64,000 nt of DNA from Ruminococcus sp. (GTDB taxonomy: Bacteria; Bacillota; Clostridia; Oscillospirales; Ruminococcaceae), in contig NZ_JAILMR010000007.1 of NCBI RefSeq assembly GCF_024692365.1, positions 121 to 64,120 on the forward strand, given 5' to 3'. Within the stretch, counting starts at the first letter, position 1, and every line of letters starts with the position of its first letter. The notes beneath the pieces are model-generated. The model was not told the origin of the DNA. It made no database searches and was given only the letters and a program-made list of their open reading frames with translations. The position numbers and the translations under genes were made by a program. This document shows positions 10,491-26,409 of this stretch, in pieces.

Positions 10491-10579
10491 GCAGATGTAC
10501 CCAAGTGGCTGAAGGGTCCGCACTCGAAATGCGGTAGGGCGGTAATACCGTCGCGAGAGTTCAAATCTCTCCATCTGCG
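10491..10579 (+). tRNA. tRNA-Ser (anticodon CGA), long variable arm
   Basis: Hand-folded. The acceptor GCAGATG pairs with CATCTGC. The anticodon stem is CCGCA/TGCGG with loop CTCGAAA. There is a long extra arm and a T-arm GAGAGTTCAAATCTCTC. No CCA is encoded. Confidence 0.85.
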
Positions 10580-10585
10580 CTTTAT

Positions 10586-11907: not shown

Positions 11908-11915
11908 CATTCAAG

Positions 11916-11988
11916 AGCTGCTACCCAGATTCGAACTGGGGACCTCATCCTTACCAAGGATGTGCTCTACCACCTGAGCCATAGCAGC
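11916..11988 (-). tRNA. tRNA-Thr (anticodon GGT)
   Basis: Hand-folded on the minus strand. The acceptor is GCTGCTA/TAGCAGC, the D-arm is GCTCAGGTGGTAGAGC, the anticodon loop is TTGGTAA and the T-arm is CCCAGTTCGAATCTGGG. Confidence 0.85.
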
Positions 11989-16496: not shown

Positions 16497-17282
16497 TCAC
16501 TTTCTTACCATAACTACAAGATGAGTAGTTGTGTAAGAGTCGCTGAACAGAACGTTCTGCTGTCTGTCCTCGGTAACTGTCATACCTGCAACGCCAACAT
16601 CTGCCTTGCCCGACTTGACTGCGGGTATAATAGAATTGAAAAGCATATTTTCTATCTCAAGCTCATATCCCATTTTCTGACAGACAGCGGTCATCATATC
16701 AACGTCAAAACCAACGATATCCGAGCCTTCCTTATACTCATAAGGCGGGAACTCGGCATTAGTTGCCATTATCAGTTTGCCCTTGCTTGTATCGGCATTC
16801 GCATCGGGAGTGAATTTATTCTCTCCTGCGGATTCGCCGTCGTAATAATTCTTGATAGCATCAAGCGTGCCATCTTTTTTAAGTTCATCGAGAGCGGTAT
16901 TTATCTCAGCCTGAAGAGCGGTATTATCCAGATTCATCGCAATAGCGTAATCCTCATCGGCAAAGCCCTCGTCAAGGATCTGTACATCATCATTCTGGCG
17001 TAAGAATGCATTGGCTGTATCGCTGTCGATTATGACCGCATCCACCTTGCCCTGCTTCAGTGCCTGTACAGCATCTGCGTACTTGTTATATTTTTCGACC
17101 TTTTCTTTACCGTACTCATCGCTTGCGAGAGTATCACCTGTTGTACCCTGCTGCACACCTATCGTCTTGCCATTAAGATCATCGATGGAATGAACTGTAT
17201 TCTCGGGAACTTTACCGCCGCAGGCTGTCATCACAGCTGCTGAAATAACTACTGCTGCCATTGTCGCAAATGCTTTTTTCAT
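16497..17282 (-). CDS. Amino-acid ABC transporter substrate-binding lipoprotein
   Basis: Start at MKKAFATMAAVVISAAVMTACGG (lipobox). Family 3 solute-binding content. Confidence 0.85.
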   Translation of the reverse strand: MKKAFATMAAVVISAAVMTACGGKVPENTVHSIDDLNGKTIGVQQGTTGDTLASDEYGKEKVEKYNKYADAVQALKQGKVDAVIIDSDTANAFLRQNDDVQILDEGFADEDYAIAMNLDNTALQAEINTALDELKKDGTLDAIKNYYDGESAGENKFTPDANADTSKGKLIMATNAEFPPYEYKEGSDIVGFDVDMMTAVCQKMGYELEIENMLFNSIIPAVKSGKADVGVAGMTVTEDRQQNVLFSDSYTTTHLVVMVRK

Positions 17283-17347
17283 AAGAACATATCCTTTCAT
17301 TATTTCTTTACTTATTCTTACATTTAGAATAATTTACCCTCGTGGAT

Positions 17348-17376
17348 ATTATAGCATATATACAAGTGATATTCAA
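17348..17376 (-). promoter_or_regulatory. Promoter of the amino-acid ABC operon (TTGAAT-17-TGcTATAAT)
   Basis: Hexamers on the minus strand at 17376-17371 and 17353-17348. Confidence 0.55.
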
Positions 17377-17441
17377 CCATTTAGAAGAAGTTTAATAATT
17401 TTGAAATTATTTTTTGCTTTTTGTCAAATATTTGCATATAT

Positions 17442-17924
17442 TCATAAGCTATGAAAGCCCGAGGGTGTAATAGCTGCGACGGCTATTCCGATAACAGAAT
17501 TCCTGTGCAGATACCCTACCATGTGCGAACGGCTGTCAACGGAATCGGCTCTGTTATCGCCCATAACGAAGATACAGCCCTTCGGCACAGTCAGCGACAG
17601 CGGAACATCGGGTGTGAGTTTTCCGCAAAGATAGGGTTCATCGAGTTTCACACCGTTCAGCCGAACTTCACCTGTGTTTTCAATGCGGATATCATCGCCC
17701 TGCATGGCTATTATACGCTTGACCATAACGACATCTCCGCGGCGGATAAGGGCTATTTTCCGTTTTTCAGGACGTTTGCACCTTACGCACACCACCAGGT
17801 CGCCATGATGCAAAGTCGGTGTCATACTGTTTCCCGCGACCCTGTACACTTTCAGCACAGCCGTTGCGGCGGATGCAAGTGTCACGACAACGCCCGCCGA
17901 CAGCAGTGCCTTATTCTTCCACAT
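17442..17924 (-). CDS. lepB: Signal peptidase I (S26 family)
   Basis: 160 aa with an N-terminal TM helix, the GNSMTPTL serine motif, the KRIIA lysine motif and GDNRADSVDSR. The start codon lies 14 nt inside the 3' end of the upstream giant gene. Confidence 0.88.
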   Translation of the reverse strand: MWKNKALLSAGVVVTLASAATAVLKVYRVAGNSMTPTLHHGDLVVCVRCKRPEKRKIALIRRGDVVMVKRIIAMQGDDIRIENTGEVRLNGVKLDEPYLCGKLTPDVPLSLTVPKGCIFVMGDNRADSVDSRSHMVGYLHRNSVIGIAVAAITPSGFHSL

Positions 17925-20900
17925 ATGTCACCTTTCCGTCCTCAGCGAAAGCTACCCTGCCACGCTGTTTTGCCGCCCTTATACCAAGGGATACAGCGAC
18001 TTCAAGTGCAGGAGTCACCCTGGTGAAACCGAACAGATGCGCCGTTTCGCGCATGAGGTCTTCACGCTGCATAGCTATCTGCCTTGAAAGTATCAGTATC
18101 AGACCGTTTCCAAGTTCCTCTGGCGGGATATCCTTGATATCACGGCGGAGTTCGGGGGCACATTTTGCACGGCACAACGCATAGCTTTCAGGGGACTGAT
18201 CATCGCGCCAGATGAATTCCGTCTCGCCCGACTTAACAGACTTGCCGCGGGATTTCTCCAACGCTATATCAAATGTGCCTTTCACAAGATTGCTCTGTCT
18301 TGCTACGCTCCAGGCAGTCATGACCCTCTTTTGCAGAACTTCCCTGCTGATGGGTGCTTCAGCATCGAGGATAGTGTTTATGCAATCAGCTATTTTATTT
18401 GTAGCCAGCTCGTTGAATTCCTCGGACTTGCCCTGAACAGGCGGTATGAAAGGCACATACTCCTCGCACTCATCAGCCAGTGCCGATTGTTCCTCACGTT
18501 CAAAAACCAGAGGTTCAGCCTTTTTAGGCGGTTCCTCCTCAACAAGTGCAGGAGTGTTCTTGGCTTCTATTGCCTCATTTATCGCAGTTATCACCGAGGC
18601 TATGCACTTGTTCTTGTCGGTGAGCCAGTCGAGGATATAAACGTTCATGACGTTCCAGCCAAGACCTTTCAGCACCGCAGGCTGAGAAACTGTGCGGTCA
18701 TAGGCTGTGCCATTCTCGTAGTATTTTCTGCCGCAGCAGTTTATTCCGAGGATATAGGTGTTCTCGTCATCGGGGGCGGCAACTGCCACATCTACCTTGT
18801 AATCCGAACAGCCCACACTGCACTTGACCTTGAAGCCACGCTGTTCAAGTTCGGCAGCCACAAGCTTTTCAAAGCCCGTGCCAAGACTTCCACTGCCCGC
18901 ACGTACAGGAAGTGCAGACCTGCCCTTTGCGGCAAACTCAAGGAAGCCTTTCAGACCGTCAACACCCTCGGAACGTGTACGTGAAAGATCGATCATCTCG
19001 GAGCGAATAACAGAATATACCACCATTTTCTCCCTTGCACGGGATATTGCAACGTTCAGTCTGCGCCAGCCGCCGTCTCGGTTCAGAGGACCGAAGTTCA
19101 TGCTGACCTTGCCCTCCTTATCAGGGCCGTAGCCGATGGAAAACAGTATTACATCACGCTCATCGCCCTGAACATTTTCAAGGTTCTTGATGAGTATAGG
19201 CTCATACATCATGTTTGCGATCTCTTCAAGCTGAGGTTCTGCGCGGAAAGCATCCGCCAGGACATCTTCCACCAGATTCTGCTGCGGCAAACTGAATGTT
19301 ACCACGCCAATGGAATGTTTTACCAGCTGGGGATTACGCAAACGGCGGCATATCTCGGCAACCACCGCTTCCGCTTCGGCACGGTTTGTCTTGGTGCTTC
19401 CCTTGTCGTAGAAGCCCTCGACATTCACCCAGCTGACCTCGCTGACCTGATCATCGGGCGAGGGGAAAGTATACAGCTTGTTTTCATAGTATTTTGAATT
19501 GCTGTACGCAATAAGGCTCTCGTGGCGTGAACGGTAGTGCCACAGCAGATGTTTCTGAGGCATGGAGAGTGCAAGACAGTCATCCAGCACGCTTTCAAGG
19601 TCTTCCTTATCATAATTTTCCTCGTCCACCTGATTGGAGGAGAAGAAGCTTGTAGGCGGCATCTGCTTGGGGTCACCCACGACTATCACATTCTCGCCGC
19701 GTGCGATAGCACCAACCGCCTCGCAGGTGGGCAGCTGAGAAGCCTCATCGAATATGACAAGGTCGAACTTAGGATAAGACGGGTCGATATACTGTGCCAC
19801 AGATATTGGCGACATCAGCATTACAGGGCATATCCTGCGCAGAAGATTAGGTATGCTGTCAAAGAGTTTGCGTATGCTCATCATGCGCCCGCCGCTCTTG
19901 ATAGCACGCTGGAGTATACCAAGTTCACTGCTTTTAGCACCTTCGCCGGGCGCAGGAACTTTCGCTGAAAGCTCTGCCGCCAACTGCTGTATAGTCAGCT
20001 TTTTGAAACTCTCATGGGCATCATTAAGGCGGCGCACAGTGTCCTCAAAGAGCGTGCCGGTAAATCCCGACAGAGCCTTGCTGTTTCTGACAGTAAGGCT
20101 AACTTCAGCTTTTGCTACTGCGCAGTCAAAAGCGGGAACAAGCTCACTGCTGTCCACTTTTCCACCCAGATATGCTTCGGCTATATTTGCGGCCCCTGCC
20201 TTATCCAGCTTTTCACAGAAACTCATGAGCACCGACCAGTCTTTCAGGCGGGGCATTTCTGTCGTAAGCGCAGAGATACGTCCGCGGGCATCGTTTACTG
20301 TGCCCTGTGTCAGAAGATTTGTGTCTGTCTTGTAAGTGCTTTCAAGCTCGTTCAGCACTTTTGACAGATTTTCACCATTATATTCAGGCATACTGCTATC
20401 GCCCAGTTTAGCGGCAACAGATGTTTTCTGTGCGGCATCGAGGGGAGCGGCACTAAGCTTTTCGCGTAAAGCTACGGATTTTTTGAGAGAATCTGCCAGT
20501 GTACCATACTGCGAGCCCTCGCCCTGCCAGAGTGCGCCGAAAATCTCCTGCGCCGCTGACTGAGAGTTATCAAGCTCGGTTTTCAGCTGTGAAGCCCTCA
20601 CAAGCCTGGTGTAGTGTTCTGTTATATTTTCCTTGGTGACAGCACCCGTATTCTTAGCGTGGGAGGCAAGTTCCTTTACCAGCTTTTTACTGCCAAAATG
20701 CTTGGGTATAAACCACTTTGCCTGAACGGTCTTCCATTCGGTCTGGGCTTTTGCCGCATCGTAGCCGAATACGGTGTCTTCAAAATCCTTAGCTATATCG
20801 GCTTTACAGCTTTGCAGTTCTTTCAGCGAAGCCATGGTCTTATCTATCGTGGGTGCCAGCATATCCCAGCGGTTACCTGTCAGCACCATTGGAAGCACGA

Positions 20901-23652
20901 AGCCTTTCACGCTTTTCGCGGCAGAACATATATCTGCAAGGCTCATCAGCTGTGCCAAAGTCGGCTCGTCTATGCCCGCAATGGCTGAAACACCGCTCTG
21001 TTCGAGCTTTGCAAGCTCATCGCTAAGTTCATCGAGCTTTGCGCGGTACTCATCGCCTGTAGTAAGTCCGCACTCGGTCAGGCGGCAGAATTTCAGAGGA
21101 GTATCCCCTATCGTGCCAAACTGTCTGCCGAGATTGGCAAGACTTTCTGCCAGTTCTTTCCATACGGTATAGGTATCGGGTGTCATGGCATTTATCTGTT
21201 CATCACTGAAAGCAAGCTTGCCGTCAAAAGCACGGTTCTGCTCATATCTTACAGCCGCATCGTACATGGATATGCCGAAGTTGCGCGGCTTGTGTATCTC
21301 GTCCATAACGCCGTTCAATTCAGCACGCAGGGCTTTCAGCTTATCCGCCTGTGCCTGATAGTCGGCGGGCTTTTTTATCTTACCCACATTGAGCGTCTCG
21401 TTCAGCTGGTCGAGAACGGCACGCTTCTGCGCTTTGTTTGAATGAAGCTCGATACAGAATGGTCCCAGACCTATCTTTGCAAGACGCTTCTCAACTACCG
21501 ACAGAGCCGCCATCTTTTCTGCGACGAAAAGCACTGAACGTCCGTGATACAGGGCGTTGGCTATCATATTGGTTATGGTCTGGGATTTGCCCGTTCCGGG
21601 AGGTCCGTGAAGCACAAAACTCTCGCCCTGACCAGAAGCCACCACTGCCGCAAGCTGAGAAAAATCCGCCGCCACAGGCACAGCAAGGTCTGCGGGTGCG
21701 ATATCGTCCAGATCATTAGGCGACACCGTGATATCGCTGCCCTCCCACTCTGTCTTGCCAGAGATAAGGCTTGCAACGACCTTATTCTGCGCCAGTTCGT
21801 CAGCACGGTTGCGGATATCGTTCCACATTATGAACCTGTTGAAGCTGAACTGTCCGATGAATGCATATTCGTCGATATCCCACCTGTTGCGGGACATAAC
21901 ACCCTTGCGAACAGTGCTTAGGATCAGCGGTACGTCAACACCATGCTCGTCCTCGGGAACAGGATCGAGCCCCTTGATATCTATACCAAAGGACTGCCTG
22001 AGCATTTCAAGCAGGGTGATATTAACCTGTGTGTCCTCATCACGAACACGTATCGAAAAGCTCTTGTCCTGTACCTTTTTAATAATATCGATGGGCACCA
22101 GCACCAGAGGGGCATAACGCGGGCGTTCGCTCTTGTCAGTTTCGTACCAACGCAGGAATCCCAGCGCCAGATAAACGGTATTTACGCCGTTTTCCTCCAT
22201 GCTGACCTTCGCCATGCGGTGTATCTTCTTCATGGTCTTTTCAAGTTCGGCTTCGGTAAGGAAAGTGCGCAGACGCTTTGAGCGGAATTCTCCCGCTGCT
22301 ATCTCGGATATCTTCTCGCGCTGAGTTTCCGTCTCATATATCTTGCTTTCCGCCATCTCCATTTTAAAATCAGCGGGCACGGGCATTATCTTGAAAGTCT
22401 CATCAGCGGCTATCTCGTCCTCAAGTGAAGCTATGCTGTCCACCATAAGCTGAACATTTGATGAAGTCGGGCGGAAATTAAGCAGACTGTTTCTCAGGCT
22501 GAGGTCGAGAAGCTTCCTCTCCCAGACCATCTGCTTTGTGACCTCCCTCGGCTGTCCGTTAGCCGCCGTGTCAAAAGCTATTTCTCCCGCCGAACCGTGA
22601 ACTCTTTCAGGCAGACCATAGTCTTCTGCCTTGAAAGTGCCGTTTTCATCAAATACACGGGACGGCAAAGGCTTTATGCCGGCGGCACGGGTTCGTTCGA
22701 TATCGACAGCAAAGCAGAAATCTGCCGCCTTAACCAGAGTATCAGCCGCGTGTACAGCCGAAGCTTCAGCATCGTTACCTGTACAAATATCGGCACACTC
22801 GATGAGCGATATCTCGTCCACACCGCTCGCCATGCGCTTTGTAAGCGCGGTGATATCGTATTGAAGGCTATCGGGGAAAGTATCTTCTTCCAGCCAACAG
22901 CCCGCCATAGCGTGAGTTGAAGTCATCACAAGCAGGCTGTTCAGACCTGCGGCTTCAAGGCACGAACAGAACAGCACCGCAAGGTCAAGGCAACTGCCAC
23001 TCTTCTGCGCAAGCACGTTTTCGGGCAGTACGACCTTATTCGACTTATCAAATCCCGCCGCCGCAGTGCAGGTGATATTCTCCTGTGCCAGCGCGGTATA
23101 TATAGCATTTATCTGCTGTTTTACGATATGGGGATTGCAGCTCTGATATCCGGTAAAACCGCTTTCTCCGCAGTTCTGCGTAAGGATAGTCTCCGCCTTT
23201 GAGAGAACCTCACGTACAGCAGGGTGATTCGGTGTTATGAACGCAGCTGCCATTTCGGGCATGAAGTTCACACCTGTCCAGGTATCGTATGCAAGAAGTT
23301 CCAGCTGCTTCACCTCTCTGCCGAGTATCTCCTCGCCATCATCGGTGCGGGTAACGGCTTCAATGCGGACATATCCCTCGGTATTCTCGTTGAGTGCCAG
23401 AAAAAACTCGGGACGCACAACTGCATCTATCGGGGATATCTCAGCAGGAACATTGGGTTCAAGATCTATCGCAGTGGATTCATAATCCTCTGCAAAATCG
23501 GGGTCAAACGCAAGTCTCAGAAATACGTTTTTAAGCGTTCTGTCCGAGGTATTAGTCATAACTATACTGCGTATAACAGGCACAGAACTACGCTGCATCG
23601 CATAATTTATATGCGCAGTCATAGCCGCGCTGAAAGTAACTAGCTTTTCCAT
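17911..23652 (-). CDS. Giant multidomain SF1 (Upf1/Mov10-like) helicase: transglutaminase-like N-domain + DUF4011-like region + AAA_11/AAA_12 helicase + Vsr/DUF559-like endonuclease fold + DUF3320-like C-terminus
   Basis: About 1913 codons from ATG 23652 (RBS AAAGGAGAG). Motifs read in the translation: SGSCLDLAVLF...THAMAGCWLEED; LLDLSLRNSLLNFR; GPPGTGKSQT; VIFDEASQL; VGDPKQMPPT; WHYRSRHESL; VQGDERD; NVAISRAREK; DYKVDVAV...LGINCCG...LGWNVMNVYILDW; and a C-terminal tail of DUF3320 character. Confidence 0.85.
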   Translation of the reverse strand: MEKLVTFSAAMTAHINYAMQRSSVPVIRSIVMTNTSDRTLKNVFLRLAFDPDFAEDYESTAIDLEPNVPAEISPIDAVVRPEFFLALNENTEGYVRIEAVTRTDDGEEILGREVKQLELLAYDTWTGVNFMPEMAAAFITPNHPAVREVLSKAETILTQNCGESGFTGYQSCNPHIVKQQINAIYTALAQENITCTAAAGFDKSNKVVLPENVLAQKSGSCLDLAVLFCSCLEAAGLNSLLVMTSTHAMAGCWLEEDTFPDSLQYDITALTKRMASGVDEISLIECADICTGNDAEASAVHAADTLVKAADFCFAVDIERTRAAGIKPLPSRVFDENGTFKAEDYGLPERVHGSAGEIAFDTAANGQPREVTKQMVWERKLLDLSLRNSLLNFRPTSSNVQLMVDSIASLEDEIAADETFKIMPVPADFKMEMAESKIYETETQREKISEIAAGEFRSKRLRTFLTEAELEKTMKKIHRMAKVSMEENGVNTVYLALGFLRWYETDKSERPRYAPLVLVPIDIIKKVQDKSFSIRVRDEDTQVNITLLEMLRQSFGIDIKGLDPVPEDEHGVDVPLILSTVRKGVMSRNRWDIDEYAFIGQFSFNRFIMWNDIRNRADELAQNKVVASLISGKTEWEGSDITVSPNDLDDIAPADLAVPVAADFSQLAAVVASGQGESFVLHGPPGTGKSQTITNMIANALYHGRSVLFVAEKMAALSVVEKRLAKIGLGPFCIELHSNKAQKRAVLDQLNETLNVGKIKKPADYQAQADKLKALRAELNGVMDEIHKPRNFGISMYDAAVRYEQNRAFDGKLAFSDEQINAMTPDTYTVWKELAESLANLGRQFGTIGDTPLKFCRLTECGLTTGDEYRAKLDELSDELAKLEQSGVSAIAGIDEPTLAQLMSLADICSAAKSVKGFVLPMVLTGNRWDMLAPTIDKTMASLKELQSCKADIAKDFEDTVFGYDAAKAQTEWKTVQAKWFIPKHFGSKKLVKELASHAKNTGAVTKENITEHYTRLVRASQLKTELDNSQSAAQEIFGALWQGEGSQYGTLADSLKKSVALREKLSAAPLDAAQKTSVAAKLGDSSMPEYNGENLSKVLNELESTYKTDTNLLTQGTVNDARGRISALTTEMPRLKDWSVLMSFCEKLDKAGAANIAEAYLGGKVDSSELVPAFDCAVAKAEVSLTVRNSKALSGFTGTLFEDTVRRLNDAHESFKKLTIQQLAAELSAKVPAPGEGAKSSELGILQRAIKSGGRMMSIRKLFDSIPNLLRRICPVMLMSPISVAQYIDPSYPKFDLVIFDEASQLPTCEAVGAIARGENVIVVGDPKQMPPTSFFSSNQVDEENYDKEDLESVLDDCLALSMPQKHLLWHYRSRHESLIAYSNSKYYENKLYTFPSPDDQVSEVSWVNVEGFYDKGSTKTNRAEAEAVVAEICRRLRNPQLVKHSIGVVTFSLPQQNLVEDVLADAFRAEPQLEEIANMMYEPILIKNLENVQGDERDVILFSIGYGPDKEGKVSMNFGPLNRDGGWRRLNVAISRAREKMVVYSVIRSEMIDLSRTRSEGVDGLKGFLEFAAKGRSALPVRAGSGSLGTGFEKLVAAELEQRGFKVKCSVGCSDYKVDVAVAAPDDENTYILGINCCGRKYYENGTAYDRTVSQPAVLKGLGWNVMNVYILDWLTDKNKCIASVITAINEAIEAKNTPALVEEEPPKKAEPLVFEREEQSALADECEEYVPFIPPVQGKSEEFNELATNKIADCINTILDAEAPISREVLQKRVMTAWSVARQSNLVKGTFDIALEKSRGKSVKSGETEFIWRDDQSPESYALCRAKCAPELRRDIKDIPPEELGNGLILILSRQIAMQREDLMRETAHLFGFTRVTPALEVAVSLGIRAAKQRGRVAFAEDGKVTYVEE

Positions 23653-23665
23653 AAAGCTCTCCTTT

Positions 23666-23720
23666 CGGTCGGTCAAAAATTTCCACAACTCAGAATATTA
23701 GTAAAAAATGGAACCGACCG
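23666..23720 (-). promoter_or_regulatory. 5'-UTR stem-loop next to the RBS of the giant helicase gene
   Basis: An 8-bp stem ACGGTCGGT.../...ACCGACCG (23720-23713 pairs with 23673-23666). The proximal arm ends 2 nt from the AAGGAG RBS. Confidence 0.4.
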
Positions 23721-23743
23721 TAAAATGTTTATACTTAGTTAAT

Positions 23744-23772
23744 ATTATACCACTGCTTTTGTGAAATGTCAA
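23744..23772 (-). promoter_or_regulatory. Consensus promoter of the giant helicase gene (TTGACA-17-TGgTATAAT)
   Basis: The minus strand reads TTGACA (23772-23767), a 17-nt spacer, then TATAAT (23749-23744) with an extended -10 TG. Confidence 0.65.
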
Positions 23773-23805
23773 CGATTTACATACAATAAAATACGTACAA
23801 TAAAA

Positions 23806-23843
23806 CAAAAAGACACTTCTGCCTTTTCACTGACAAAAGTGCC
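23806..23843 (-). terminator. Terminator of the binding-protein/diguanylate cyclase pair
   Basis: The minus strand reads GGCACTT...AAGTGTC followed by TTTTTGTTTT. Confidence 0.6.
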
Positions 23844-23852
23844 TCTAAATAT

Positions 23853-25361
23853 TTATTTTTCTGATTTGCTTATCTTGCCATCATACCAACCATAGCCGTC
23901 TCTTCCGCGCTCTTTAACCTTGTAAAGCGCTCTGTCAGCACAAGCTTTGAGTTTCACAAAATCCCTTGCATCATGGGGACAAAACGCACCGCCGCAGCTA
24001 CAGCTGACGCTGTAATCGTCGCCCTCCTTGCGGGTGATTGGCTTGATGTCATGTACCCTGCGTTTCAGGTCGCTGACTTTTGATTCTATCTTCAATCTGT
24101 CCGCACTCTTTATAAATACGAGGAATTCATCACCGCCGTAACGGGAGATAAGCCCCATATCACCGAAAAGTTCTTTCAGCAGTGCCGCAAACTCAATAAG
24201 CACCTTATCGCCTGCGTCATGACCATAGCGGTCGTTCACCTGCTTGAAGTAATCCACATCGATGAACAGTACCGTACATTCGGCTTTCAGCGCATTCTGG
24301 AAATAATTGTGTGCCGCAACGTCCAGTGCCCTTCTGTTCATAACATGGGTGAGAGGGTCGTGAATCGAGAGATTTTTGAGTATTTCCCTGTCGGCAACAT
24401 CGCGCCTGTGTGTCAGCAGGAACATCACAGCCGTCGCGCACAGCAAAGTCAGGATATAAAGAATAACTATGCCCCTGAACTTCTCCATCGCCGAAGACAT
24501 TGCGCTGTTGGGTATCCTTACAACCACGTTCCAGCCGTGCATGAAATCGATGTTCGCATACACCTGTGAATAGCTGATATCGCCTATCCTGTATACAACG
24601 CCCGCCGAACGCTCTCCGTTGACCATGGACTTCATCCACTCGCTGTACTTGCCGATATCCCTGTTATCGATATTCCTCTCGAATATCAGCGTAGCGTTCG
24701 CCCAGCTGCCGCTGCCGTGCTTATCACCGCCCGAACACTGTATAACATTGTTCGATTCCGTATCCATCAGCCAAATCTCTGTTTCGTCTGCAAGAGTTTC
24801 GGTAGATGCCATGTTCTGTATCTCTTTAAGCGGATAGGTAAGGAACAGCCAGCCTTTTCTGCCCGAGTCGTATTCCATCACAGTAAAAAGTGTGATAACA
24901 GGCTCTCCTGTAAGTCCCGAACGGTAAGGCGTAGATATGGAAACAGGGTTAGCCTGACGGGCTGTATCCAGAAGTTCCCATTTTTTGAACTCAGCAAGCT
25001 GAAGCTCCGAAGCATAGACCTTTCCGTTACCGTCGATAAGTCCCATACTTACATAGCCGTCCCCCTCAAGATCTGCAAACTCGTCATAAAGCGCCTGAAG
25101 ATCGCTGTGCTGCTGTGCTGTGAGCATAGCAGACATATTCTGGGCGGAGGTCGTCATATATTTAATTGAATTGTTCATCTTTTCTGCGACAAGATCGCAG
25201 ATCTGACCCGTGAGCTTTTTATCGTGCTCCTTCATCAGTCCGTTGATCGATACTATCATCACTGCCATGCCTATCAGACAGACAACGAAATACACGATCA
25301 TCATCCTGATAAACGAACCGCTTCGTTTTAGCTCACCTGTCTCGGTGATCGTATTGTTCAT
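23853..25361 (-). CDS. Membrane-bound diguanylate cyclase (GGDEF) with an extracytoplasmic sensor domain
   Basis: 502 aa. Two TM segments flank a ~270-aa extracellular region. The C-terminus has DPLTHVMNRRA...RYGGDEF. Confidence 0.85.
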   Translation of the reverse strand: MNNTITETGELKRSGSFIRMMIVYFVVCLIGMAVMIVSINGLMKEHDKKLTGQICDLVAEKMNNSIKYMTTSAQNMSAMLTAQQHSDLQALYDEFADLEGDGYVSMGLIDGNGKVYASELQLAEFKKWELLDTARQANPVSISTPYRSGLTGEPVITLFTVMEYDSGRKGWLFLTYPLKEIQNMASTETLADETEIWLMDTESNNVIQCSGGDKHGSGSWANATLIFERNIDNRDIGKYSEWMKSMVNGERSAGVVYRIGDISYSQVYANIDFMHGWNVVVRIPNSAMSSAMEKFRGIVILYILTLLCATAVMFLLTHRRDVADREILKNLSIHDPLTHVMNRRALDVAAHNYFQNALKAECTVLFIDVDYFKQVNDRYGHDAGDKVLIEFAALLKELFGDMGLISRYGGDEFLVFIKSADRLKIESKVSDLKRRVHDIKPITRKEGDDYSVSCSCGGAFCPHDARDFVKLKACADRALYKVKERGRDGYGWYDGKISKSEK

Positions 25362-25362
25362 A

Positions 25363-26409
25363 TTATCCTCTGTTATGATCCAGCGTTTCCCTGACCTCTG
25401 GATCGTTAAGATTTTTGGAATTTACAACTATTATTCCCGTATCAACGAATTTCTGCTCCACTTCTTTGCCGTCTATCAGTTCAAGCGCTGCCCTGACACC
25501 TTCGTAAGACATATCGAACTGCTTTTGCAGAACCGATGAAGCTGTATAATCCTCAGAATATATCAGCTCGGATATCTCAGGCGAATGATCGAAGCCTACA
25601 ACAACGATATCCGTCCGCTCTTTTTCCTTTATCGTAGCCGCAAGTGAAGTCGTAGAAACGTTATCACTGCCGAACACACCTTTGATATCGGGATAATTGT
25701 TCAGCAGATCTCTTGTACATTCACAGCCCCTGTCCACATCGCCCTCGTTGAACTTTATGTCGGATATGACCGTCCAGTTATCGGGCGCATGGTTTGACCA
25801 GTACTGCAAAAATCCTGCCAGACGTTCATTTATCGTCTGGGTCGCAGTAGCGCACACCTGAACGCCTACCTGCACAGTCTCATTATCGGTGTACCCTTTT
25901 TCGTGAAGCTGATCCAGCATCTCTGCAGAAGCAAGCTGCCCTGCCATCAGGTTATCCGTCATAAAACATACATCGTAGCTGTCAGTGATGGCGATGGTAT
26001 CCACCAGCACCAGCTTTATACCCTTTGAGTAGACCTTTTCAATATCAGCCGAAAGCTTGACAGAATCATTGGGCGACAGCAGTACAGCATCAGCACCCGC
26101 TTCAGCAGCCTCTTCCATAAGTCTGCTTTGCGATTCCCAGTCGCTCTCGTTATTGCATCCACTGTAATACACATTACAGTCGAAATCTTCGCCGCCTGCC
26201 TTAGCGCCATCGACAACCACATCCCAGTAATCGCTGTTAAGGTTCTTTATAATAAGGTATATATTTTTCCTGCCCTCTTTTATCTCAGTCAGGGGAGAAA
26301 ATTCAGGTGCAGGTTCAAATTCGGTAACAGTTTCAGACTTCTTCTGTTCACAACCCGCCAAACAGAACAGCATCGCTGTACATATCACTGCTGATATGAA
26401 TTTTTTCAA
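25363..26409 (-). CDS. Sugar-binding periplasmic-binding-protein-fold lipoprotein (RbsB/LacI-type PBP)
   Basis: 348 aa with lipobox LAGCEQ and type I PBP fold content. Its stop is 1 nt from the diguanylate cyclase start. Confidence 0.75.
   Translation of the reverse strand: MKKFISAVICTAMLFCLAGCEQKKSETVTEFEPAPEFSPLTEIKEGRKNIYLIIKNLNSDYWDVVVDGAKAGGEDFDCNVYYSGCNNESDWESQSRLMEEAAEAGADAVLLSPNDSVKLSADIEKVYSKGIKLVLVDTIAITDSYDVCFMTDNLMAGQLASAEMLDQLHEKGYTDNETVQVGVQVCATATQTINERLAGFLQYWSNHAPDNWTVISDIKFNEGDVDRGCECTRDLLNNYPDIKGVFGSDNVSTTSLAATIKEKERTDIVVVGFDHSPEISELIYSEDYTASSVLQKQFDMSYEGVRAALELIDGKEVEQKFVDTGIIVVNSKNLNDPEVRETLDHNRG

Follow-up and report, generated by a model that had tools for sequence, protein, structure and literature searches.

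A chromosomal ProA-family giant helicase of Ruminococcus with a probable single-polypeptide role in defence against phages and mobile DNA

The locus considered here raises a simple question: does a giant multidomain helicase, encoded by a single gene among the housekeeping genes of a Ruminococcus chromosome, serve in immunity or in the upkeep of the host genome? The gene lies on the minus strand of a 64,000-nucleotide stretch of contig NZ_JAILMR010000007.1 (positions 121 to 64,120, assembly GCF_024692365.1), hereafter the window, and its product is WP_296790483.1, a protein from a Ruminococcus metagenome-assembled genome that is 96% identical to the protein of R. albus SY3. A preliminary description of the DNA had read it as a candidate protein of nucleic-acid surveillance or defence that acts alone. 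This proposal is supported by a full-length match to the model of the anti-phage protein ProA and by a match to the PADLOC candidate PDC-S37. The gene is best explained, as far as its sequence allows it to be judged, as a chromosomal ProA-family member with a probable role, carried out by one polypeptide, in defence against phages and mobile DNA.

Membership of the ProA family is secure. The NCBIfam equivalog NF058533, "anti-phage protein ProA" (release 20.0, cut-off 1500 bits), matches residues 16-1878 over profile positions 1-1903 of 1903 with a score of 2087 bits, and the cut-off is also passed by all five relatives scanned, i.e., the Klebsiella, Bacteroides and Acinetobacter copies and those of two loci designated L028 and L020. 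The domain order is that of ProA: a beta-sandwich followed by a transglutaminase-like domain, DUF4011, a split superfamily 1 (SF1) helicase, a Vsr-like restriction endonuclease (REase) fold and a DUF3320/winged helix-turn-helix (wHTH) tail, and the same order is found in the Klebsiella, Bacteroides and Acinetobacter copies. PDC-S37, for which no curated cut-off was used, matches residues 377-1902 at 1218.7 bits (positions 13-1540 of 1550 in the model). It shares with the window protein everything from DUF4011 through the helicase and REase to the wHTH domains, whereas the 375-residue N-terminal module of the latter is extra to a model whose first matched position falls at residue 377; PDC-S37 is itself a candidate only. 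The profile-HMM searches, the PADLOC scan and the structure prediction with Foldseek that the preliminary description had proposed lend support to all the domains it named, with Transglut_core as a borderline case.

Within the giants that combine DUF4011, an SF1 helicase, a Vsr-type REase and wHTH domains, the ProA family is the branch that carries the transglutaminase-like module, and these proteins are relatives of Hhe. Like the window protein, Hhe is the product of a single gene and contains DUF4011, an SF1 helicase and an MTES_1575-type REase. The score of the window protein against the Hhe model NF042953 is 751.8 bits, below the cut-off of 2000 bits, and the alignment spans profile positions 1100-1714 only, i.e., the C-terminal helicase core and the REase, while the N-terminal half stays unaligned; the PADLOC model PDLC02194 for Hhe gives 526 bits. 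Hhe, which joins a DUF4011 helicase to a Vsr endonuclease, is listed as one of the Gao 2020 defence systems, and it figures among the defence helicases in DefenseFinder. The architecture had been described earlier by Anantharaman et al. in 2013, in giant proteins made of HEPN, a transglutaminase-like peptidase, an SF-I helicase, a Vsr REase and two wHTH domains, with DUF3320 equated with wHTH (PMC3710099). Modification genes are absent from the MTES_1575-type giants, which were predicted to be modification-independent defence proteins; it was proposed that the wHTH domains recognise invading DNA and that protein cleavage by the transglutaminase domain provides a further line of defence (PMC3710099). 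Those giants begin with a HEPN RNase, whereas the window protein begins with the beta-sandwich; some longer relatives of the latter bear an N-terminal extension of ~200 residues, identified in P0419 as the HEPN family DUF4145. Systems of this kind are already catalogued, and the view of the preliminary description that the DUF4011/DUF3320 family lacks an experimentally defined role is out of date, since Hhe stands among the Gao 2020 systems and the architecture was described in 2013.

In the central body of the protein, DUF4011 is matched by Pfam over its full profile, as the preliminary description had anticipated, and the segment includes the blocks LLDLSLRNSLLNFR and YLALGFLRW as well as many invariant residues. 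The Upf1-like SF1 ATPase motifs are intact, and all those quoted beforehand were found: GPPGTGKS at 683, FDEASQ at 1301, VGDPKQ at 1325, WHYRSRH at 1371, VQGDERD at 1494 and NVAISRAR at 1533. The expected Pfam profiles AAA_11 (61 bits) and AAA_12 (58 bits) match, as does AAA_19. Across 96 diverse full-length relatives, the set to which the conservation counts below also refer, K689, D1302/E1303 and Q1330 are present in every protein, and R1499 and R1538 in 95. The nearest solved structures are IGHMBP2 and Sen1, none being from a close relative. The core motifs are common to the window protein, to the Upf1-like SF1B helicases (IGHMBP2, Sen1, Upf1) and to MkoA/MkoC of the Mokosh systems, but the likeness is confined to this core, the accessory domains being entirely different. 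Between motif Ia (713) and motif II (1301) there are ~590 residues, of which ~510 form a poorly conserved insertion in RecA1, with few invariant residues. The insertion, which the preliminary description took to be helical and placed between motifs I and II, is longer than the ~450 residues first given. Upf1-like helicases carry their domains 1B and 1C at this same site. A HEPN domain within the insertion was considered and rejected, there being no conserved Rx4-6H motif.

It is within this insertion that alleles of the gene diverge most. When the window allele, of the SY3 type, was compared with that of R. albus AR67/KH2T6, nucleotide identity to AR67 in 90-nt windows fell to 52-83% (mostly 52-73%) over a hypervariable segment (residues ~811-1200), against 80-97% in the rest of the gene. 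At the protein level, the two alleles are 62-64% identical over residues 851-1200 and 97-98% identical in the helicase core and REase. The first winged helix co-varies with the hypervariable segment, with 80% identity against 97% elsewhere. The synonymous divergence (dS) of the segment reaches 1.66, compared to ~0.55 elsewhere, and its ratio of non-synonymous to synonymous divergence (dN/dS) is 0.18, compared to 0.01-0.06. Another relative, P0003, stands further from the window protein than that allele does in the core (94%) and nearer to it in the hypervariable segment (76%); this conflict between the relationships of segment and core points to old allelic lineages or to recombination. Such a pattern is expected of the specificity determinant of a conflict system and would be unexpected in a housekeeping helicase.

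In the N-terminal module, the AlphaFold2 model of residues 1-380 (pLDDT 86.7, pTM 0.83) places an alpha/beta domain after a beta-sandwich (residues 1-120). Foldseek matches of the sandwich include MG and C2 domains and the N-terminal sandwiches of factor XIII, TG2 and TG3. In the transglutaminase-like domain, a triad is formed by Cys221, His247 and Asp266, together with Glu285, and in the model Cys221 lies at the N-terminus of a helix. These residues are kept by nearly all relatives (Cys221 and His247 in 93 of 96, Asp266 and Glu285 in 91). Searched alone, the N-terminal module retrieves 1,688 cluster representatives at E <= 1e-10.

The C-terminal part combines a nuclease fold with two winged helices. 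Both the Vsr/DUF559-like segment and the DUF3320-like tail of the preliminary description were recovered, the former by MTES_1575 (78 bits) and Foldseek and the latter by Pfam (residues 1748-1786, 30.5 bits) and by the winged helix in the model of residues 1550-1913 (pLDDT 82). Foldseek matches of the REase fold include I-Bth0305I (3r3p, target-normalised TM 0.68-0.77) and NGO0050 (3hrl). The fold stands, but the Vsr-like motif reads GINCCGRKYYE in the window protein, without the canonical Glu, Asp and His (D ... E-x-D-G ... H), while the Klebsiella copy has the canonical GVECDGATYHS. The loss is common to the whole R. albus and R. flavefaciens clades. In the family at large, the Asp of "DG" is kept by 88 of the 96 members, unlike in the Ruminococcus lineage, which has lost Asp, Glu and His; because only 13 members have the Glu and 12 the His, a complete nuclease motif is probably not family-defining. 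The first winged helix has the topology helix-helix-helix-strand-strand, and the winged helices of cullin and ESCRT-II are among the Foldseek matches of this region.

Altogether, these features allow us to infer a mechanism for the window protein that relies on ATP-driven translocation and a cysteine enzyme. The winged helices and the variable insertion would recognise invader nucleic acid or protein bound to it, and translocation by the helicase would couple this recognition to an output. In the Ruminococcus protein, the output would come not from DNA cutting but from the transglutaminase-like cysteine enzyme, which may cleave, cross-link or deamidate a phage or host protein, while the Vsr-like module may act as a DNA-binding pseudo-nuclease. 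A more elaborate scheme can be put forward only tentatively and is somewhat doubtful as a whole: Ruminococcus ProA would be a near-core immune gene, vertically inherited, whose target specificity resides in an exchangeable cassette (~390 residues plus the first winged helix). Old lineages of this cassette would be kept or exchanged between strains, and the activity that kills or blocks would have passed from the degenerate Vsr-like nuclease to the conserved cysteine enzyme.

The main rival to a defence role is a domesticated genome-maintenance helicase, acting on R-loops, replication-transcription conflicts or repair in the manner of Sen1 and IGHMBP2, the closest solved structures, and now core in Ruminococcus. 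It is unlikely in our view, and it nonetheless accounts for several observations that weigh against defence. A scan of a genome collection by exact peptide patterns yielded 26 loci, and in two Ruminococcus clades the synteny is fixed. In the R. albus clade, orthologues 71-96% identical occupy the same position in eight loci (the window included), within a block made of a binding protein gene, a GGDEF gene, ProA and usually a signal peptidase gene, even in loci with different outer flanks. All 21 loci retrieved from the R. flavefaciens clade (partial ones included) have ProA directly upstream of murT-gatD; full-length copies share 58-61% identity with the window protein, and within the clade the identity of ProA is 68-88%, that of MurT 85-97%. 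Because each clade has its own fixed site, inheritance within each appears vertical, and Ruminococcus ProA looks like a core gene. Purifying selection acts over most of the gene, with an overall dN/dS of ~0.09, and its GC content (51.0%, GC3 54.4%) is inside the range of the other genes in the window. Recent horizontal transfer was rejected on this basis, the excess in GC over the flanks vanishing when genes are compared with genes. There is no mobile-element gene within ~10 kb of the gene, its promoter looks constitutive and matches the consensus, and a DUF4011 gene is core in every P. aeruginosa isolate.

Some of the evidence that counts against defence concerns the protein and its name. From motif reasoning alone, the nuclease module of the window protein would be catalytically dead or non-canonical, and the loss of the nuclease motif also suits a maintenance helicase. 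The link of the N-terminal domain to transglutaminases is, in sequence, at the limit of detection, weak but consistent. Pfam Transglut_core matches residues 179-247 with a borderline 23.4 bits for a gathering score of 23 and is matched by none of 10 diverse homologous fragments; the CEP76 peptidase family gives a further weak Pfam match. A profile search of the PDB with the N-terminal module returned two matches that are not significant (E 0.4-0.6), both to proteins named "transglutaminase-like domain" and both aligned on the Cys-bearing helix. Foldseek matches to mouse PNGase and to transglutaminases are weak as well (E ~1e-3), at the limit of detection. The transglutaminase-like domain proposed in the preliminary description is a putative one, favoured by the near-invariant triad, the model, these weak structural matches and the transglutaminase domain given to this architecture in PMC3710099, with a borderline profile score. 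The primary publication behind the name ProA was not found in full-text searches of the literature.

Several features favour defence over maintenance. The hypervariable cassette, which relates the alleles to one another differently from the core, is not expected of a housekeeping helicase. The curated equivalog names an anti-phage protein, and a part in repair is not obvious for the conserved cysteine-enzyme module. The family also has a scattered distribution, on plasmids and in defence islands of several phyla: relatives elsewhere are plasmid- or island-borne, whereas the window gene is chromosomal and syntenic. The preliminary description would have abandoned a defence role for a core gene that is strictly syntenic and universal in the clade, without patchiness or a protection phenotype; strict synteny is indeed found in both Ruminococcus clades, but the wider family is patchy and mobile.

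This mobility also invites a reading that we regard as rather improbable, namely that ProA is a factor of competition or exclusion between elements, directed mainly at incoming plasmid or conjugative DNA, of which the Ruminococcus copy would be an old, domesticated acquisition. Relatives occur in 525 plasmid records (Klebsiella 244, Ralstonia 108, Acinetobacter 41, plus rhizobia), 218 of which are conjugative plasmids, and the wording of the 2013 prediction, "invading DNA", is general (PMC3710099). Several copies stand beside genes of mobile elements: a Klebsiella plasmid copy has IS110, IS5 and a toxin gene on its flanks, an Acinetobacter plasmid copy lies beside integrase, WYL and ThiF genes, and a 50%-identical copy follows a serine recombinase. 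Yet the NCBI name specifies an anti-phage function, and classical anti-phage genes surround two other copies. Locus L028 (1-25829, in a 6.6-Mb genome) carries a 48%-identical ProA in a dense defence island with NERD-HRDC, a PDC-S48-like DEDDh exonuclease with BRCT, a Mokosh-like helicase with DUF2726, McrBC, CTD1/MComp1 and an SMC-like ATPase; the Bacteroides copy (L032) is convergent with an adjoining type III-A retron reverse transcriptase. An exclusion role would, moreover, be compatible with defence against phages and mobile DNA as proposed here. No match was obtained in the E. coli genomes searched with the Klebsiella ProA DNA. A Mokosh-type system (RNA helicase plus nuclease), suggested by analogy in the preliminary description and sharing the Upf1-like SF1 core, is effectively refuted by the membership tests: MkoA/MkoC models reach ~90 bits over residues 1295-1546 only, against full-length scores 13-23 times higher for ProA and PDC-S37, no PLD-type nuclease domain was found in the window protein by Pfam, and no MkoB partner gene lies nearby.

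For annotation, the label of ProA-family anti-phage protein can replace that of DUF3320/DUF4011 protein. With the defence reading comes a further lineage, of rumen Firmicutes, whose giant helicase of defence type occupies a fixed chromosomal site across many species; defence genes seldom have such a site, which may indicate domestication or a dual role. The hypervariable segment that differs between alleles suggests a location for specificity, and the decayed nuclease motif, set against the near-invariant Cys-His-Asp triad, suggests the identity of the effector. The remaining interest of the locus lies in its core-like inheritance, in the hypervariable segment and in the contrast between nuclease decay and the cysteine enzyme.

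The features of the gene are collected in Table 1. The open reading frame (ORF) extends over 17911..23688 on the minus strand, and translation from the ATG at 23652, preceded by the strong ribosome-binding site (AAGGAG) previously noted, gives a protein of 1,913 residues, in agreement with the ~1913 codons first stated. The coordinates first assigned to the locus, 17911-23772, are right at 17911, but 23772 takes in the promoter, the coding sequence ending at 23652. That promoter, correctly described as perfect, is the sole 12/12 match with a TG extension within 17200..24100 and is kept in the related loci L001, L009, L012 and L034. Because it lies downstream of a terminator-like hairpin (23846..23809) of the upstream GGDEF gene, ProA has a strong promoter of its own. 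In the 5' untranslated region (UTR), CGGUCGGU and ACCGACCG can pair in a hairpin whose 3' arm adjoins the ribosome-binding site; it was rejected as a regulator, with z = -1.75 relative to shuffled sequences and no conservation in relatives.

Table 1. Features of the ProA-family gene and its product in the window (positions of the whole stretch; aa, amino-acid residues).
Feature	Residues	Position	Strand	Evidence
Sigma-70 promoter, TTGACA-17-TGgTATAAT, extended -10		23744..23772	-	direct sequence reading
5' UTR, ~90 nt, with AAGGAG		23653..23743	-	sequence; contains weak hairpin
ProA-family coding sequence	1,913 aa + stop	17911..23652	-	NF058533 2087 bits; PDC-S37 1219 bits
Beta-sandwich	1-125	23278..23652	-	AlphaFold2 model, all-beta over residues 5-119; Foldseek
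Transglutaminase/papain-like domain	126-345	22618..23277	-	Pfam, triad conservation, model, Foldseek
DUF4011	380-560	21973..22515	-	Pfam residues 380-551, 166 bits, full profile
RecA1, N-terminal part	661-750	21403..21672	-	motif I (Walker A, K689), motif Ia
RecA1 insertion, ~510 residues	751-1260	19873..21402	-	lowest conservation in the protein
Hypervariable segment inside RecA1 insertion	~811-1200	20053..21222	-	identity to R. albus AR67
RecA1, C-terminal part, and RecA2	1261-1550	19003..19872	-	motifs II, III, V, VI; AAA_11, AAA_12
Vsr/DUF559-like REase fold (MTES_1575)	1591-1695	18568..18882	-	Pfam residues 1594-1691, 78 bits; Foldseek
First winged helix, DUF3320	1746-1830	18163..18417	-	Pfam, model topology, Foldseek; allele-variable
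Second winged helix	1831-1913	17914..18162	-	model topology, Foldseek, two wHTH in PMC3710099

The neighbours of the gene are of a housekeeping kind, as the preliminary description had it, and its further claim that no other gene of the window resembles a defence gene agrees with the ten largest other ORFs, none of which gave a convincing PADLOC match. Upstream are genes for a periplasmic binding protein and a dCache-GGDEF protein; downstream follow those for an S26 signal peptidase, an amino-acid ABC transporter, glutathione peroxidase, QueH and a dockerin protein. The last 14 nt of ProA, stop codon included, are shared with the S26 signal peptidase gene (17924..17442, minus strand), and the two genes have no terminator between them. 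This adjacency recurs in the R. albus-clade loci L001, L009, L002, L003, L034 and L035. As a functional partner the peptidase was rejected: it accompanies ProA in the R. albus clade only, it has no PADLOC match, and the association is probably one of synteny. The pair of genes for the binding protein and the dCache-GGDEF diguanylate cyclase (23853-26409, minus strand) is a conserved unit, found on Ruminococcus-type contigs with ProA downstream (L034, L035) or without it (L036, L037).

A few observations were made at other loci. In R. flavefaciens GCA_900143025.1, an IS200-type Y1 transposase gene (L027, 9324-9773) lies directly upstream of ProA and is absent from the syntenic loci of the clade. 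An uncultured Ruminococcus carries a divergent ProA, 42% identical (L020, 10001-15703), outside both conserved contexts of the genus, which may represent a second lineage or a horizontal acquisition. The record that holds the Bacteroides copy, NZ_OY725931.1 (45.8 kb), is labelled B. finegoldii 'plasmid 29' but carries rpsA, glutamine synthetase III and trxB and looks like a chromosomal fragment. A diversity-generating retroelement was rejected at that copy, where no template or variable repeats were found and the reverse transcriptase is that of the type III-A retron. In the window itself, the Rfam/ARAGORN matches consist solely of tRNA-Ser(CGA) at 10491-10580 and tRNA-Thr(GGT) at 11915-11988.

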